Assembly (NCBI GenBank): GCA_964187785.1
Contig: OZ076409.1
Span: forward strand, 61,258,001-61,322,000
Origin: Amphiscolops sp. MND2022
Lineage: Eukaryota
Length of the DNA stretch: 64,000 nucleotides
Direction: 5' to 3'
Shown: one piece after another, positions 39,122 through 57,036 of the stretch
Layout: each line of letters starts with the position of its first letter
How positions within the stretch are numbered: the stretch's first letter is position 1
Made by a program: the position numbers and the translations under genes
The notes under the pieces: model-generated
The model's input: only the letters and a program-made list of their open reading frames with translations
Database searches by the model: none
Told to the model about the DNA's origin: nothing

Positions 39122-42100
39122 ACAACTGGAACTGGACAACGGAACACGCCGAAGCATTTTAACTATTGAACACAAATACCGTGTTTAGCACATCATAGCT
39201 CCATTCGACAAAACATAATAACAACACATGCACGTACAAATGAACTAGGAGCGACAGTTTTGCAACAACAAGACAAAAGAGATCTAAAACCGATAGTACT
39301 CGCAAGCAGATTTATATCTGATACTGAAAAAAAGTATACAATCAACAAATTCGAAATGTCAGCTGTTGTCATGGGACTAGAACATTTACGTCTTTGCATC
39401 TACGGAAAACCCGTCAAACTGTTGACGGTTAACCAAGCTTTAGGACCGCTAATAAAACGCAATCGCTCAAACAAAATCTACAGCGCACGCTTAACGCGCT
39501 GGCCCGACCAATTAGCACACTTCACAACAAATGTGAACCATATCGCCGGAAAACAACCAGCGCTCACGGATTACTTGAGAAGAAATCCAATTGCACCGGC
39601 ACAAAAATAATAGCGTAAGAAGATGGATTTTTAATTACCAGCATAGCACTGCACTACGATTTAGTTTCAAAATTCAAGTGGCTTAGCAACCATTTAAGCC
39701 AATCACAGTCCTTGAACTGAAAAACCAACTCGACGGAAGCAACCAAACAACGGTCATCGGACAACACGCGTGAACGAAACGCCATTACTAGCACTGATCC
39801 CAAAGCAAACAGCAACACAGAATTCAAAGGTATCGCGCTTACAGTTCAATTGAAAACAGTCAACGCCAGAACCATGTAAAGTTTTGAAACAATGGTTTCA
39901 TCACAAGAACCTTCCGATCTGATGGAAAGATGGCGAAGCGTCGTGAAGCCGAGGGTTTACCGACTTTCAAATGGCAAGTGGCAAAAACCCACGATCAAAA
40001 ATTTCTCCAAAGCTGAGAACAAAAGAAGATAGACTGCCAGAAATAATCAGTAGATTAGAAAGCCGGACCAAAAACAACAACAATCGGAAAACTTCCCAGA
40101 CTGGCAATATACTGAAACATGGATCTCCCAATCAACCGAGCACAACCAGAGCACGTGCGTAATCGACCTTCAGCTATTATTGAGGGAAGCCACCAACGAT
40201 CTGAAGCTACCAAAAACCCTCATCTTAAGTCTGGACAGACAGCAATACCTAAACGTCCCGAGGAACACAATCATTACGAGTGAAAGCTCGCAACAAGATA
40301 CGGATCAAGTACTTTTTGAAGAGAAAATCATCGTCGCGCCAATTGTCGTACCACAGTCATCACCCGTTACACGAAGGGCGGCAAACCACGTTTGGTGGCC
40401 AAAAGTAACAGAGGTTATCCAAAGGAAAATTGACAGCTGCATACCATATGAGTATTCCGGTAAGAATCTTGAACCTAATTAACCTCAGGCGGAACAAAGC
40501 AGCCTACCACCATTAAACGTACTGAACAAAGAAATCCACTGGATTTAATCGGATCAATCGCGGAACAGAACCGTAGATTTTATATCTTTTTTTCCATGGA
40601 CCGGCATATTAAAGGGCCGTCGGCCACTTTATGCAAACAGACACACTACAAAACGGTGGTAAACTCTTAACAAAAATTTAATCAATTGAATGGAGTACCC
40701 AAAATCATAAGAACCGACAAAGCATCGGCAATCACAGGCCACTACTTTAGAGATTTTTGTAGAAGTTTCAACTCACTGAAATACGAACAACATATATTCA
40801 CACCACAACTGGCGTTATAGAGCGCAGAGTAGTAAGAATTTTAAAAGCAAACCTACTCACAAACATTCAAACCGGAGTGTCTTTCGGAAAAGCACTCGGT
40901 TAATTTTTAGGAGTAATGGTTACTACCCCTCACACTAGACTAACGAATCGGCATTTGAATTACTCTTCGGTAGAGAACCGAATACCGAATTGAGTAACAT
41001 GCTAAAAATGGATATCATAAAAAAGCTAAAGAGTAGTCATTTCTTTTCAGCAAAACCAGATCCCTTGCAGGTTTACACATTCAGTGGAGAAAGCAATAGC
41101 TCCGACCATCTGCCAGTGAAACAAAAGAGAAAAGCAGCAAAGACGGTGAGTGAGTTTCTGTTTAAATTCTCGAACGAAAAAAACAACAAAACAACTTTGA
41201 AAGTCCATACTCAGAACACCTACAAACGGCTGCTACAGGAACAAGCCATACCGTAACCACATCAGATAACAGAACAATTCACCGTAAACTGAAATATAAA
41301 TCTGTAAAAACATTTGAACAGAAACCATCCAACAGAGGCACTGAAGCAAGAGGACCGGACGGAAAATTTTCCCCGAAAGAAAGCAAGGCTCCCACTACTC
41401 CCGAAAGATTCCCATCACCAGTTGATCCAACGGACACCAGCCCTGAATCACAGGCAATCAAGAACCATAGGCAGAGGGAGGCCGCGGCTAATCACGAACC
41501 GTTCAACATTAACATCACCGGAAAAGGGGCTCGGAAGAGCTGACCAAATTGCATATAGACAACTGGGACCGCTAATGATAACCACAAACCAAATGTCGGA
41601 ATCCGATATAGACCAAGTTGTTAGCGACGCACAATACTAATGACAAGAACTCCAAATCAGAAGCAAAAACGGTAAGGAACTTTTAATACAATGGAAACGG
41701 AACACAAAAACAGGAATGACCTATCACACTTAGAACTAGCAAGCAATTTGAGCTCCAGCACTGAAAATGAAAATGAAGTAGAAAAAAAACAGAAAAAACT
41801 AGCTTACGCCGGTCGAAAAGACAAAAGAAAACAAACCCATTCGTTAGATCAAATTATCTAGTATTCAAAATGATTAAAGAAAACAACGCAAAACGACTCA
41901 ACATGTCACCACTATTGGAGACAAAAGACGAAATGCTGGAGCGGGACGGCGAGGGAAAGCAATAAACCGCTCACGCCATCAGACGAACCATTCTACAGAA
42001 GCTCGTCACGCTGATCAGGGAATCCCCGGATACAACACCAACAGAACTTGGACGGTCCACCGGCACATTCGCCGGTTAGGGAACTCTATTGGATAACTCT

Positions 42101-49419: not shown

Positions 49420-50737
49420 TTTGTTCCTCACCTAAAATTTCTTAGGTGTCAAAAAAATTGGGTTTGTTCACTAAAAGTCCCTTATGATTCAATTTATTTC
49501 AGTCCCGCATAATGAAATCAGGTATCGAAATTCCTAGTTGCGTCGTCATTACATAATTCCCGTTGAAATCTTTTTTGTTCACGCAATTCCATTTCGTGTT
49601 TCAACTCCAAAATTGCGGCAAAAAAGTCTAGTTGACATTTTCATCGACGAAGGTACGCCGGCGTGATCAATTAGTCGTTTTCCAAGTTGGGAAGTTTGAA
49701 TTTCAAGACAGCAGTATGATACTCAAAAAACGGCTACGCAACTAGGACGGATCAAAGAAGTTCGGAAATGTAAAAATCTGAATACTAATGGAGAAAAGAA
49801 CAAATGATACTAAAACAACATTTCCCTGTTACTTTAGATATGAACACAACCTGGCTTGGTTATCATCGGCACAAAATTACACTGAACATTCATGACCTAA
49901 ATACATGGAATTATGATATTCAGACGAAACACTTGATAGGAACATGATTTTGCATAATGGTATTGAAGTCTGACAAAAAAATACGAACACAATACGTACT
50001 AAATAGGATTAGCACAGCACTGAAATTGTATGGCAATCATGCAGATCAGTTATAAAATCGTAAAATCGTTACAAAAATGTACAGTAACGGCAACGTCACG
50101 TTGTATTTTATATTATCTTCAAAAACTAAATCACAATCATGATGGAATGCTGAGTATTGAGTTTCTGAAGAAAATCATTTGCAACGTAAAGTAGACATGA
50201 ATTTTGCAGTCATCATTAGGAATACGCTGTAGGATAGCATTCAGATAATAAATACATAATTCACACTCTCTCCTACAATACAGCTTTTCGTAGTGTAATT
50301 TCGTATCCTAAAAATCACTCAGAGTGTCGTTTCCTAAAGAAACCCCTTTCAAAAATAACTCGAATCTCTACTTCGTAATCACAACTTTATAATTCACTCC
50401 GTAGTTTCTCCGTAATGTATTAAGATTAGGTATAGCTGAGAGATCGCTGACGGAGATATAGCGGAGCGCGTAGGCGTTCATTCTCTTTTTCTTAGCTAGT
50501 CGGTATCCTATGACGCTATTGGTCCGTAAAAATCAAAACACCAGCCACTGGCTTAGTAGAGTGACGCAGTCATAACGTTGTAATTATTCGCTTAAAGCGC
50601 TTGACTGTAATTTAAGGGAATCTTGACAACTACATTAATACTGTAGAACAATCCACTGTACTTTTCTGTATGTCCGTTTCATTTCACTTTAGATTGTATG
50701 TCTTCAATTACATTGGGAAAGTGAAAGCAAAGTTCGA

Positions 50738-52930
50738 GTGTTTTCGCGATTCCCTGAGATACCGCCAACCAACTTGACAGGTGCTCACACCATACTACAG
50801 CCTACAGAACACTCTAATACACTCACCGGAACGGATACTGTCAAGCTATGCAAAAAGGCCAGGATGGGTGATGCCTTTGAACTCTTAACCAACGAACTTG
50901 AAGCGAAACTGGCTCTACTGGAGCAGGAAATACAAGATGCACGAAAAGATGAAACGGAGTAACTCCGGTTGGCAAAATCGCTACAGGGACCCCAAAACGT
51001 GGACCATAGAGGGAGAAGGGCCCTTGGTCTAATAGCACCAGCCGTAAGAGCTGTCGGACTGGTGTTAGGTGACCCAGTCAAAGAGGCTGCATATTCGGCA
51101 CTCTCGATATTCAGCCTTTGCACTGAAAAAAAAGTCCTCGAGGCTGATATTCGAAATATAATGAGAAACTAGCAAGCAATGCAAGACACCCTGACGAGGT
51201 TGCAAACAAAAAACAATAGAAATTTCCTCTTATTGGGAAATGAAATCAAAAGCACGCAAAAAAGTGTAGCGAAGATGAAAGAAGTTTTGGGTATCCACCT
51301 CAAAACCCTCGAGAATGACATTCTCAACATAAAAGGAACTTTATCTACCCTTCGAAACCTATATACGCACGTAAAAAGTCTTCGAGCCGCATTCTACGCT
51401 TACGAAGTTTCCCTGTTCTCTTCAATTTCTTCCCTAGCAGCGAATTACGTTACACTAGTTTTCGTTTCTTGATCAACTCGCTTCCTTTGTCCGAAAACTT
51501 GCCAATGACGAAAACCTACGTGGAACAAACTCTCTCCAGCCATTCGCGTTGGCCAAGAGGCTACTTATTACGAAATTCAAATGGTTTTGGAAGTCCCCTC
51601 TTGAGTTCTGGCATTTCCGTTGTACTTGGTTTTCCAATGAAATGCAAGTCTTCGACTTTTAACGTTTATCACGACTCTCATTTGTATCAACCTAACGATG
51701 ATCTCACTACTGCTTTTTTATACCAGCTTGCTCAGCTTTGTCTTGGTATTTGTACAAGAACACACAGTTTGTCGATTTGAGAGCGTCGACCTTGCAACAA
51801 TGTTCCGGTAATAATCGCAGCAAACAATGCTCAGCTTTGTCTTGGTATTTGTACAGATAACACACAGTTTGTCGATTTGAGAGCGTCGACATTGCAACAA
51901 TGTTCCAGTAATAATCACATCAAACTATGCTGCAAAAGTTTTTCTACAACATCAGATGGCACATTACTTGGTCTGTCATCACTTTTCTACAATTTTGATG
52001 TCGCGTCTACTTTGTGAAGTCGAATCCGTTCTTTTACTGGATGCTGCGGAAGCATTTCATCTCGCAGATGGCATGTATCTTGTAATCTCCCGTCATTCTT
52101 CTTTTCACATGAAAAATGAAAGTCGCACTTTTGGTCTCTCTGTTCAAACGCTTTCTTGTCATGTCTGCATTATCCATCCCCCCAGCTGTCCAAGGAGATC
52201 TCGTCTTTACCACGGAGAAAGGTTTGTGCGAAACTATACCTCAACACTTTATTGCATCTACTCAATTTACTCCCTCATTGGACCAAGTCTTCCGTCATGT
52301 CCCTCAAGCATCAAGTCGTTTCCACGTCTATTCAATTGCCGAAGTTAGTCAGTCAGTACTCAACAGCGTACGTATGGAGCTGGCGCAACTACCAGACGTT
52401 CAATGTATGTCTAAGGAATCGTTAGATGACCTAACTCGACCCATCGCTCAGTATTACTCAACGATTTCTCCTGCTACTTCCGCTGTGTTTTGTCATCATA
52501 CCTACCTACTAAGACAGCAATCCTCCCTCACATCCATCGCCATCTCCTTGTTAACCTTTTGGATCAGTTTCACACTGTTTCGCCGACAGTGGCAACGTCA
52601 GTTCTCACATCCTCACATGTTCTTTCGTGATATCAAAGGACGTTTCTGCACATCATCGGTGACTCTTCTCAGCGGCATAGTGATGATGATTCATTGTTCC
52701 TTTATCTCACAGTAAGTGAGTTCTATGCTTTGCAGGAACTGGCACAAGAAACCTTACGACGACCTGTTCACGTTACCACTTCCATCATTCTAATTATGCC
52801 ATCACTAACCGTTTAACTTCTATTTTAAAGCATGAAACTTCTACACATCCCCCACTCTTCCTAACCGTAGTTACCTTCCTATTAGCGCACCTATTTATAA
52901 CGATTCAACCACACAAAAACACTCACACCA
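50738..52930 (+). pseudogene. env: env-like class I viral fusion glycoprotein (F-type) pseudogene of an LTR retroelement
   Basis: One frame 50738-51472 (two stops) gives furin-type RGRR (51008-51019), hydrophobic ALGLIAPAVRAVGLVLG and a heptad-like helix. Cys-rich segments follow (CQQCS.NNHIKLC, CEVESV, CHVCIIHPPSC), then a TM-like LTSIAISLLTFWISFTLF-RR. Confidence 0.75.
51729..51916 (+). repeat. 99-bp-period tandem duplication within env
   Basis: TGCTCAGCTTTGTCTTGGTATTTGTACA...TAATAATC occurs at 51729 and 51828. Confidence 0.9.
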
Positions 52931-52940
52931 ATAATCGAAC

Positions 52941-53145
52941 AAATCTTCACCTAAAGTGATGCTCTGGAACGTGTTTCCACGTTCATTTCAACCAAGTCTT
53001 CACTTCAAGTGATGCCCTCGAACGTGTTTCCGCGATCTGGAACTTACTTTTAAACTTGTATGATGCTACGGAACGTGTTTCCACGTTCATATTTCGTTTA
53101 GTCGTCACCTCGTGTGATGCAAACGCACGTATTTTTACGCTGCGC
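52941..53145 (+). repeat. Four ~52-bp tandem units with hairpin-forming motifs, between env and the accessory ORF
   Basis: (G/A)TGATGC at 52956, 53009, 53060 and 53114; TCAC-loop-GTGA and GAACGTG-TTTC-CACGTTC stems. Confidence 0.75.
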
Positions 53146-53333
53146 TACTACTCTTGATGATGATGACGAACAGTATACACCTTCTATTTGAACATTCTGG
53201 ACGACTGTCCTGCTCTTCGCATGTTTCCATGCTTACCCATAGGATACCTTTAGTCTGCGCTACCCCCCTTTGTTTGGTCTCTTGGGTACACTCTTTTATG
53301 TTTTGATCATGCACGTTTTTTTTAATGTTTCAG

Positions 53334-54345
53334 GTCTTCCTTCCCGTGTTCTCTGCCCCTGCTGCTGCCAAGACCTCAGTGGTCACCTGCTGTGGCCGCG
53401 TCGCTCCAGTTGGTGTCGGTGACATAGTACACCTCTTGGAGGACACTCGCTATGATATCAAGAAACTCTTCCCGGATGGCCGTACGTGCCTGCTGAAAAA
53501 GTGAACGACAATCACCCTCCCTTCTGCCGCTTTCTTAACCTGCCTGTCCCTACAATTGAGTCCGTCGCAGAAGTCGACCCCCACGCTACTACTTGTCTTA
53601 GTCCAAACACGGTGGGCCCATAAATCGAAAATGACGTAGAAGTGCAAGTCGACCATGTCAAAAAGGACGCAATGGATGAGTGGTGCAACCTAATGACGGA
53701 CTTCAGGTCCGTTGAAAACTTTATGCCCTTGGAAAAAAAGGGCATTCAACGATGCTCGCGCGGAGTGCTCTAAGCTCCATGAACGGTTTCTGCAAGCCTA
53801 TTTATAATTAAAAACCCTTCAGTCCGAACCCCAAATCTTGCTGCAGGAAAACGAGGATTTGCAGGCTGCCCTTTTGGATCTTAACAACACTCATAACAGT
53901 CTTATGGCTGATTCATTAAAAAAATTGATTCAATTTCTGACTTGCAAATTACGTTAGCCCGCGCAGACGACAGTAGTTCCCGTGCCCTCTTGTCATTTGT
54001 CCGCGGTCACCTACTTTCCCTGCCAACAGATTTCTTTTCTACTGAAACCCCATGTACAATAATCTACCACTTCCTCTGTACACCATCTGCGTCAGATAAC
54101 ACTGCCCTGCACGCCAAAACTGTTCTTCGTTTTCTACATCCCGACGAAATATCGACATCCTACGATGACTCTCGAGTACATGAAATGAAGCAGCGCGTTT
54201 GGTTCCCCTCACCACCAACATAGAACGAGTACTGAATATTCCCACATTGCGTCGTGTGTACGACCATTGTGGCCTCTACGGCCTTTGCTTCCTGCTGGAC
54301 AGCCACCATACATGTGGGGACTGTGCCCCAAGAAACCCCAATTGA
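53334..54345 (+). pseudogene. Decayed accessory ORF with a C-terminal DnaJ/J-domain-like region
   Basis: Follows acceptor-like TTTTTTTAATGTTTCAG (53333). YHFL (54065), HPD (54137-54145), and after removal of a 5-bp ATGAA duplication EAARLVPLTTNIERVLNIPTLRRVYDHCGLYGL. Confidence 0.65.
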
Positions 54346-54416
54346 TTCAACTTGCCTTCCCCAAGGACGAACAGTATACCTCCAGTTAATGGTCCTCTTC
54401 CATTTGTCAACCTAAC

Positions 54417-54715
54417 CTTGCAAGGACGCAAGCTGCAGGGAGGGGGCTGATATAACAAGCGGATCAGTAACAGCAAGCCAGTGTTCTCATTGGTTGCAGA
54501 CAAAAAGTGAAAGCGAGACAAACAAAACAATTCTGAAATATTAACACTTGAAAAACAACAAACACATTCACTTCTTAATTTGAACAATATGTCCCTTTAT
54601 ATCAATGACATTTATTCTGAGCAGTACACTTTCTGACGCTAATTCACTTTAATATAAACTAACAATTTCTTCTGCCTTCAATATTCTTCTTGTTTATTAA
54701 AAGTACAAGTTATCA
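54417..54715 (+). mobile_element. 3' terminus of the env-bearing element: hairpin, PPT and 3' LTR (54448-54715)
   Basis: CTTGCA-AGGA-CGCAAG hairpin, purine tract AGGGAGGGGG, then TGATATAAC...GTTATCA. Confidence 0.7.
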
Positions 54716-57036
54716 CGACGTGTTTTTCCCCAAACTTCCCTCAAACTTCCCTCGAATTTAAACCCAAACTTAAACCCTATTGAGCCTTGTTTTAATTAAA
54801 GTTACTAACCTGAGGTCGCCTGTCTGATCCTGTCGCGGTCTTCAAGTCTGGGAGAATCGCAGCTATTACTTGCCCCAGTTACTACTGACATATCCTTCTC
54901 AATCTACACAAATGAAGGCGGACCTTTCTTACTCTTTCGATTTGAAGTATTTCAAACTAAAAATAATTTATGCAAACAAGAACAATCGCTAGCAAATAAT
55001 AAACTTAGCAAATTTGACTTTTAAGACAACCATCCACACATCCGAAATAAAATAAATAGCTAGCTTCTGTGCATCAATCCAGCAACAATAGTCACGGTTG
55101 TTAATTGAGCAACATTTTCCGGTCGACCGCATTTTCTGAAAAATGTGTAACGACACGTTCTGTGGTCTGGATGTTGTGAAAAGGTGATTAAGTGTTGCTG
55201 GAAGCCCTGATAGGCCTTAGTTACTAAAAACATGATTTTCCTCCGAGTGTTTCTTTTTTAAAGGACTTTTTCTAGATATCCCCAACTGACACCAAGTTGT
55301 TACTGCTAGGCATGACGGGAATTAAGCCACCAAACCACAACTTAACTATTTAACTATTTTGTAAAATTGTATGTGAAAATATATAGAAGTTAGTTGCCAA
55401 AATTTGATTCTTCAGATCCAAGAGGTACTTAGAATAACTACCTCCAATACTGAGCTACCAGTATCAAAAACGTGAAAATACGTTAAAGTTATGTAACAGG
55501 ATGGAAGTACAGTATTGCAGCTTGCTAGCTGCGACGGAAAGTTACGAAATTGCTATTTGGGTAATATATTCTAATCCACTGGTTTTCCGCAATTTGACTT
55601 TCACTGAATTGGTCAGAGTGATGATTTCTAACAAACATGGCCATATGTGCTTCGCGATTCTTTGTCTGGAATTTCACCAGAACACAAAATTTTGCATGTG
55701 TTCGGATTATTCATATTAGAACTTCTTGTTCATTAGAAATTTTTCAAAAAAAAAACGTAATGTCGAGTCCATGTTCACATATTACGACCACCAAGTAAAA
55801 CATTACCTATAATACCAAGGTGTACTCCTGAGAACTTAATTCCACCAACTTACAATAGAACTGTCATTAAAAGCAAATCTCTGGAAAACGGCTTGAGAAA
55901 AGCGTTCAATTGGTTACAGCAAATTAAATTGATACCGTCAGAATTGGAGAAATGTTGAGTTTTCAGCTTAAGCATGATATCTCCAGACTTGAGCTACTCT
56001 TTGGATAGGAAAGGCTTCAGTTATGTAAAAACTATCAGCAGGATTGAGTTTGAACCCAACAAAATTTAGGATTGGTTCTCTGGGTAGGGACTCGATGAAG
56101 CTATGCCCATTCCCCGTCCTTACTGGTTGTGTTACTTGTGGTTTGTATTGCTCGAATAGTAAAACGCGCAAAAAATGTAGTACTATCCATGTGAATAAAC
56201 TTTCAGCTTCTTTTCTTTCTTCATATTTAATCCAAATGATGACTACTATCGTCAGCCATTCTTCAGCAATGTCTAGTTCAGTTTTGCAGAATATCGGATT
56301 ATGATGTACTTGATGACTTTTCAGAATATATCATGTTCAGTTTGTGAAGTAGTTTGATTGCCAATGACGCCGAACGTCCGGCATGATGCTAGGAGCGAAG
56401 AAAGTTAATTTTTCCATTACCGCGGGGTGGACACCGAATAAGCAGCTCTGCTTTTCTAAGTCATCGCCCTTTTTCGGATACCATCCGACATGACACAACT
56501 GTTTCAATTGGAGCTGATTTGGCGATTATATGGTTATTTCAGATGCCGTTTTATGATAGATAAAAAAAATACTTTCCCGAAACAATCCAGCAAGATTTTC
56601 CAGAAGGGTTTCGGTAATTTCCTGAAATTCGTGGTCATGGATAAAAAAAGTATTGATGGGTGCTAGATAAATTGACCGACGGTGCAACTGGCCGACTATG
56701 CAATTGGCCGACCATAACGAATTTAATATTGTGGAATGGGTAGTGAAATGGAATTTAAATGTTTTGAAAGAACGATATTATCTTATAAATATCAAGAAAT
56801 AAAAACAATCAAAAAAATCTCTGTTGACTTTTCAGCATCCTCTTCAGTGAAACATTATCAAATGTCTTCATCATTGTCTTATTACAACTATTTAATAAGG
56901 TTCAATCATTCTTTCGATGCGGATTTTAGTTGCATAACAAAACTGATAATATTTTTATTGATATCCAATCGATTACGTACCAAATAACATAAGAGCAAAT
57001 AACATAAAACAAAATTAATTTCAAATAACATAAAAA

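Follow-up and report, generated by a model that had tools for sequence, protein, structure and literature searches.

Accessory genes separate complex from simple retroviruses, and the env-carrying elements of invertebrates are usually described with three genes. The ancient errantiviruses (PMC13524379) have the organization LTR-gag-pol-env, an F- or gB-type env and a tRNA primer site, and occur as young multi-copy families; the elements described here are alike in gene order, primer site and multi-copy occurrence and have an env that looks F- or gB-type, but carry a fourth gene after env and a Macro domain inside pol. The accessible text of that report contains no mention of DnaJ, J-domain or macro, and the accessible content of its seven supplements none of DnaJ, J-domain or ORF4. 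J proteins encoded by viruses include the polyomavirus T antigens, the Molluscum contagiosum JDP and gene 057w/Rki of phage RB43, and J-domains are described as stimulating Hsp70 wherever the remainder of the protein directs them (PMC3486835). A preliminary description of the present locus knew of no J-domain accessory gene in a retroelement, and we likewise found none in the largely open-access literature searched. Here we report a J-domain accessory gene in env-carrying gypsy elements of two lineages, likely expressed by splicing to judge from its sequence signals. A decayed copy from one lineage, in which we call the gene ORF4, lies in the window, by which we mean the whole 64,000-nt stretch of Amphiscolops sp. 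MND2022 contig OZ076409.1 that was analysed.

The relic in the window and its unbroken relatives

The copy in the window is a decayed, 5'-truncated relic of family A that retains part of env, the J gene, the polypurine tract (PPT) and the 3' LTR (Table 1); gag, pol and the 5' LTR are missing, and similarity to other copies begins at about 50713, within an env that matches that of family B at 49–58% identity (tblastn). Several frameshifts and stops interrupt its ORF4. The preliminary description had placed the end of the gene at 54345, a single frame break at a tandem duplication, and the LTR at 54448–54715. Instead, the gene extends to about 54415, the LTR continues to 55104, and many frame-shifting gaps and stops separate the relic from an unbroken relative (16 such gaps after the acceptor in a nucleotide alignment, several of them in close pairs that may be alignment artefacts). 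Its other landmarks proved correct: both quoted peptides are present, in different frames flanking the 10-nt tandem repeat at 54180–54189, the HPD motif is at 54137–54145, and the acceptor at 53333, the PPT and the env relic upstream are in place. Searching Pfam with two window fragments alone matched no family, and Rfam returned no match above the gathering score in 52700–55200. Elsewhere in the window, an unrelated RNase H-like fragment at 39170–39589 and two pairs of long direct repeats (57036–57335/61386–61685 and 25416–25715/28274–28573) probably belong to other mobile elements.

Table 1. Features of the element relic, in window coordinates
Feature	Position	Strand	Basis or remark
env relic, family A, F-type fusion glycoprotein family; broken, 5'-truncated	50713..52756	+	blastn against family A copy with unbroken LTRs; tblastn with family B env
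Four short hairpins, UUUC loop closed by G-C, in env–J gene spacer	52967..53232	+	motif also in A, B, C, E and L176, with stems changed
Predicted 3' splice site: pyrimidine tract, CAG/GT at 53333/53334, codon phase 2	53310..53335	+	site and phase common to A, B, C, D, E, H and L176
ORF4 relic: beta domain, Cys/Pro linker, coiled coil, J-domain, CxxC tail	53334..54415	+	architecture from model of unbroken copy
J-domain part of ORF4	54062..54285	+	HPD at 54137–54145; frame change at tandem repeat 54180–54189
Polypurine tract	54437..54447	+	read from sequence; position kept in other copies
3' LTR, about 657 nt	54448..55104	+	comparison with family A copy

Unbroken copies are present elsewhere in the 1.07-Gb assembly, in which a Wnt gene marks the host as an animal. 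A search with a 103-aa fragment gave 37 matches among the 44 candidates scored, several of which sit in open frames of 355–397 aa, and searches with more distant database relatives (106, 130, 66 and 50 genome matches) revealed further families. The carriers are Ty3/gypsy elements with the order LTR-gag-pol-env-ORF4-PPT-LTR, in at least five young families. Of 30 J loci examined together with 20 kb of their surroundings, 20 had an LTR pair, most of these enclosing gag, pol, env and ORF4 in order, and the remaining 10 were truncated or interrupted; paired LTRs are 89–100% identical, and mostly more than 98% identical in families A–E (20 loci). ORF4 follows within 3.5 kb in 61 of the 73 env loci with at least 43% identity, and an env match lies upstream of at least 62 of 92 ORF4 loci, a lower bound because 131 of 726 env candidates were scored; the lists behind both counts were merged by hand. 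The linkage of the J gene to env and the LTR that had been proposed for the window thus extends to the genome copies. Local tandem arrays of ORF4 or env-ORF4 pieces were also seen: L012–L017 (C1:21.58 Mb), L082–L083 (C12:47.30 Mb), L092–L093 (C12:56.78 Mb), and at C11:7.31 Mb and on C1120.

Read in family B and compared with the other families by tblastn, pol has the order PR-RT-RNaseH-Macro-IN and gag carries a CCHC knuckle. The Macro domain between RNase H and integrase scores above the Pfam cut-off (residues 888–947 of family B pol, L051:4771–9564) and is possibly a second anti-defence or regulatory module. The primer site corresponds to the end of a host tRNA-Leu(CAG) gene, called by ARAGORN at one of three loci; a tRNA-Leu 3' motif has 793 genome matches, hundreds of them in tandem at a spacing of about 296 nt from G000:C8:35.59–35.65 Mb onward. 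By eye, env has a signal-like start, a basic cleavage site, a hydrophobic peptide and a C-terminal anchor. Family D env matches Baculo_F at E 3.6e-5 (23.0 bits, cut-off 24.1); family B env has no Baculo_F match, and a search of env against solved structures returned none. The env of these elements, from its sequence, looks like an F-type fusion protein. The earlier label was an invertebrate ERV-like lineage; the elements are Ty3/gypsy, errantivirus-like, and not ERVs of the vertebrate type.

The ORF4 protein and its J-domain

In unbroken copies ORF4 encodes 330–360 aa: a small beta domain is followed by a long coiled coil, and the J-domain lies at the C-terminus. In the family A model a three-stranded beta domain (residues 25–52) leads through a Cys/Pro linker of low confidence into a helix of some 110 residues; the C-terminal domain is helical, and conserved extra Cys residues and a CxxC tail are packed with it. 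The small N-terminal fold bears basic residues; its best ESM Atlas score was 0.75, with no relative found. Two proposed sources for it were examined, the SH3-like tail of integrase and a domain common to the J genes of the second lineage described below, and neither received support (profile probabilities under 4%).

The identity of the C-terminal domain rests on profile and fold. An unbroken family A copy aligns with positions 2–63 of the 63 of PF00226 (E 4.7e-5). With a cut-off of 27.8 bits, families C (40.0), D (31.0), E (38.1) and K (35.9) score above it, and A (23.9), B (16.8) and H (25.0) below it though full-length; another unbroken family A copy has no DnaJ match in Pfam at all. Half of the A/B-type proteins (20/40) match PF00226 at E ≤ 0.1, and an A/B-type profile finds DNAJC5 (E 0.0012) and DNAJA2 as its best solved structures. 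Because a fold search with the whole protein returned coiled coils only, the C-terminal domain of family A was refolded alone with 42 sequences, which gave a pLDDT of 94.6 and placed HPD at the loop position. Among 48,161 chains, the titles of at least 16 of its 24 best structural matches identify them as J-domain proteins; the best has Z 7.5 (rmsd 3.8, 81–83 residues aligned) and Ydj1 Z 7.4 (rmsd 2.4, 73 aligned), as against 4.2 or less for unrelated rows, with no match at Z 8 or higher. Foldseek also places J-domain families on top, yet none at E ≤ 0.001, and J-domain clusters at 0.85–0.86 in the ESM Atlas serve as a lead only. The J-domain recognized in the preliminary description is thus supported by both kinds of comparison. 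HPD is conserved as well: 12 of 13 unbroken frames have it, drawn from seven lineages that are only 22–50% identical, and so do 36 of 40 database relatives, in an alignment rich in close relatives whose median column has its commonest letter in 74% of sequences. The residue after HPD is K in 95% of this alignment and E in the window.

ORF4 is also under constraint. Its dN/dS was 0.17, 0.12, 0.15, 0.31, 0.27 and 0.32 in six pairs with dS of 0.44–0.79; the window copy, saturated pairs and very young pairs were left out because their alignments cross frameshifts, dS exceeds 1 or changes are few. The J gene is kept by selection. That it is a neutral passenger, a captured fragment of a host gene that brings no benefit, is scarcely credible: although a related env clade does without a J gene, these ratios largely refute the idea, splice signals are conserved, young copies of five families keep frames of 330–390 aa open, the architecture persists at 22–50% identity, and the J-domains of the elements form a group of their own, apart from 15 host J-domains (96/93). 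In that tree, built on 85 columns, the host domains have no resolved order and no host donor is picked out. Taken together, ORF4 is almost certainly a real, selected J-domain gene.

The gene descended with the elements, since the nearest pairs are the same throughout: A–B and C–D are the closest pairs for ORF4, env and pol alike, and E–H for ORF4 and env. Between the copy at G000:C1:76.86 Mb and those at C2:70.56 Mb and C7:33.36 Mb, identity is 95–97% in env and pol, 83% in ORF4 and 67–69% in the LTR; from these sequences, the ORF4-LTR end appears to have been swapped as a cassette among close sublineages. Database relatives of ORF4 number 54 proteins at E ≤ 0.001 and 211 representatives, all without a protein name. 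Two of them reach at most 52% and 45% identity to any copy in this genome, and therefore come from other genomes.

Helix II has 1–3 basic residues in families A–E and H, compared with 2–5 (mostly 4–5) in 15 host J-domains; there are four in K and in the database relatives P0192 and P0194, three in C and D, and one or two in A, B, E and H, and the window's family A has the most degenerate helix II of all. The sequences thus indicate that these residues were lost in derived families and kept in K, P0192 and P0194. Helix III of the element J-domains contains a proline. For family C, the one family so modelled (the window belongs to A), a complex of the J-domain with residues 1–540 of a host cytosolic Hsp70 reached a score of 0.70 where the best of three controls had 0.00, which shows likeness and not binding, because J-Hsp70 complexes are a textbook pair that has already been solved. 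The mark used for such models is reached by 51 of 78 solved pairs and 2 of 108 mismatched pairs. At least 95% of contacts recur between runs, the partner has a pLDDT of 74 or more, and HPD and helix II are placed on the interdomain linker of Hsp70. We consider it probable that the ORF4 protein engages Hsp70, and a co-chaperone activity is predicted. It is very unlikely that in the window's family the domain is instead a degenerate scaffold, keeping the fold and HPD without stimulating Hsp70 and acting as a dominant-negative binder or structural module. The loss of basic residues in A, B, E and H, Pfam scores under threshold and the added Cys residues and packed CxxC tail would all suit such a role, but across 42 diverse sequences just seven columns reach 90% conservation, with HPD among them, a pattern difficult to account for if Hsp70 were not contacted, and basal members have a canonical helix II.

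Splice signals and hairpins before ORF4

In families A, B, C, D, E and H the ORF4 frame opens at a pyrimidine tract and YAG/GT in codon phase 2, and its first methionine falls at residue 118, 130, 118, 34, 52 and 23, respectively, after or inside the conserved beta domain; there is no early methionine. The same acceptor and phase are found in L176, a 1.6-kb unspliced contig from another assembly, the exceptions being one E copy and the K copy. The acceptor exon begins with G in every case, from which a donor with AT at its end was predicted; AT/GTAAGT then proved to occur once per LTR in families A, B, C and D, 197–244 nt upstream of the LTR end. It occurs nowhere else in the roughly 13 kb of each of these elements, whose LTRs barely align, and the window background is four such donor 7-mers in 128,000 nt. 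By eye, AT/GTTAGT stands at a similar place in the LTRs of E, E13 and H, other variants in N and K, and a donor without AT in one old copy. The donor is degenerate in the window copy; in another family A copy it lies 197 nt before the LTR end.

The env frame also opens at a phase-2 AG: in A and D, whose env exon has A as its first letter, the next five codons include an ATG, whereas C and E, with G first, have no ATG nearby. A single LTR donor would therefore serve both env and ORF4 and make a start codon across the junction. A splice-created start codon in gypsy env offers a parallel. The available text of PMC12992720 and PMC11952523 contained nothing relevant to such start codons, and for none of the database proteins could a start at the predicted junction be demonstrated. 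ORF4 is likely made from spliced RNA, and the conserved signals favour the earlier suggestion of expression through the acceptor at 53333. In unspliced RNA of families A–D, the LTR donor spells a start codon with a stop directly behind it, which makes a minimal upstream ORF before gag.

Families A, B, C and E, as well as E13, carry 3–5 hairpins in the last 500 nt ahead of the acceptor; their tetraloop is conserved, and their stems differ between families yet stay paired. L176 has three. The other 9–13 kb of these elements contain none, and the count was reached by 0 of 200 shuffles, with a loop pattern that was relaxed after inspection of the data. Lying where it does, the array would be present in genomic and env RNAs and absent from ORF4 RNA. 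ORF4 could be a Rev-like regulator that is made from the most fully spliced RNA, binds the array and uses Hsp70 to remodel the RNAs for export or to shift splicing. The persistence of paired stems around a conserved loop and the small basic beta fold at the N-terminus are consistent with this, and CERV of Cer1 is a spliced export factor in an LTR retrotransposon (PMC10309623). We nevertheless hold such a regulator to be quite unlikely: the motif is absent from D, H, N, K and the second lineage, all of which have J genes, the loop pattern is post hoc, the hairpins may just tune the splice site or bind a host protein, and ORF4 yielded no nuclear signal or RNA-binding family.

A second J lineage and the role of ORF4

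A genome search with PF00226 exposed another gypsy lineage, in which a gB-type env is followed by two J genes; of ten loci read, eight have pol upstream on the same strand (G000:C5:54003110–54014371, L156–L157; also L158–L165, L168–L169 and L172–L175). Its RT is 35–48% identical to that of family B, its LTRs are about 530 nt, and Monjiviricetes_fusion passed in four of five env fragments. The tandem genes encode a coiled coil and a J-domain scoring 64 and 52 bits against DnaJ, above the cut-off; each has an upstream pyrimidine tract and AG and its own ATG, and together they have three database relatives at E ≤ 1e-8. Between the J genes of the two lineages, profile comparison finds likeness in the J-domain alone (88.5%, 72 columns), and in the J-domain tree they fall into two groups (96/93 and 98/95), with no resolved order among the host domains around them.

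A third set of elements, a sister env clade with about 33% identical env and LTRs of 2.5–4.4 kb, has a different fourth ORF of 215–371 aa, open in five of the eight copies read (for example L106:4454–5416, L109:4523–5440 and L111:4799–5443), with no J similarity in those eight and no Pfam match. This clade spreads well without a J gene, and therefore not every env element here needs one. An RT tree of 17 rows from this genome's elements, with five sequences under 200 aa and one that had no match omitted, separates the three groups and places the J-less clade as sister to the F-type J clade (84/100). Two independent captures are the simplest reading; the alternative is one old capture followed by loss.

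That two distant lineages have J genes suggests that a pressure recurs in this host. One such pressure could be silencing, with ORF4 binding host Hsp70 and diverting or jamming the Hsp70/Hsp90 machinery by which Piwi/Argonaute proteins are loaded with small RNAs, allowing the element to escape. In Drosophila, piRNA biogenesis collapses and transposons are released when Hsp70 acts on the Hsc70-Hsp90 complex (10.1101/423210), and the excess divergence of ORF4 and LTR over env and pol in some pairs is what a conflict gene, or a swapped cassette, might show. However, dN/dS is well below 1 in all diverged pairs, none of the analyses linked ORF4 to small-RNA proteins, and synonymous sites share in the extra divergence, as recombination would explain more readily than selection; we regard an anti-silencing role as unlikely.

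We give about an even chance to a reading in which ORF4 recruits Hsp70 to the element's own particles or RNA-protein complexes. Because a J-domain acts where the rest of its protein directs it, the architecture can be read as a targeting beta domain, a coil and an Hsp70 trigger. Splicing would join the AT of the LTR donor to the G of the acceptor exon, giving the start codon from which the ORF4 protein is made; the beta domain would select the client and the coiled coil oligomerise the protein; and the J-domain would trigger the Hsp70 ATPase at that site, so that Gag, Pol or RNA complexes are folded, assembled or taken apart. The choice of client is a guess by analogy with the polyomavirus T antigens, which serve their own virus. 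A bolder combination, in which two unrelated env-bearing lineages independently acquired J genes and the F-type J protein acts through the hairpin array as a chaperone-recruiting regulator, Rev-like or anti-silencing, is possible but doubtful; if true, it would be a new class of retroelement accessory protein that commandeers Hsp70.

For annotation, element copies should not be mistaken for an expansion of host DnaJ genes: many of the at least 150 PF00226 matches in the genome are element copies, among the matches listed. Cheap and decisive assays for J-domains exist, and the role of Hsp70 for or against retrotransposons, be it in Gag/Pol folding, RNA export or small-RNA loading, is therefore directly testable.

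Hepadnaviruses, whose reverse transcriptase is reportedly activated by the host Hsp70 system, offer a model for what the element J protein might serve. They are reverse-transcribing and Hsp70-dependent, but they borrow a host Hsp40, whereas the elements described here encode a J protein themselves. Like the known viral J proteins (PMC3486835), ORF4 is a type III J protein encoded by a mobile element, with host similarity confined to the J-domain; those belong to DNA viruses and phages, whereas ORF4 belongs to a reverse-transcribing element, its activity is predicted, and its J-domain is C-terminal, behind a beta domain and a coiled coil. The ORF3 types of bdelloid elements (PMC5408684) and CERV of Cer1 (PMC10309623) are likewise captured or novel accessory genes of LTR elements, usually expressed from spliced RNAs. 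They encode esterases, exonucleases, and membrane, coiled-coil or export proteins, and the accessible text of PMC5408684 contains no chaperone or DnaJ term; ORF4, by contrast, is a J-domain protein and is additional to env. The elements of this genome thus have a selected fourth gene, predicted to be spliced, that comes with a recognisable biochemical handle.
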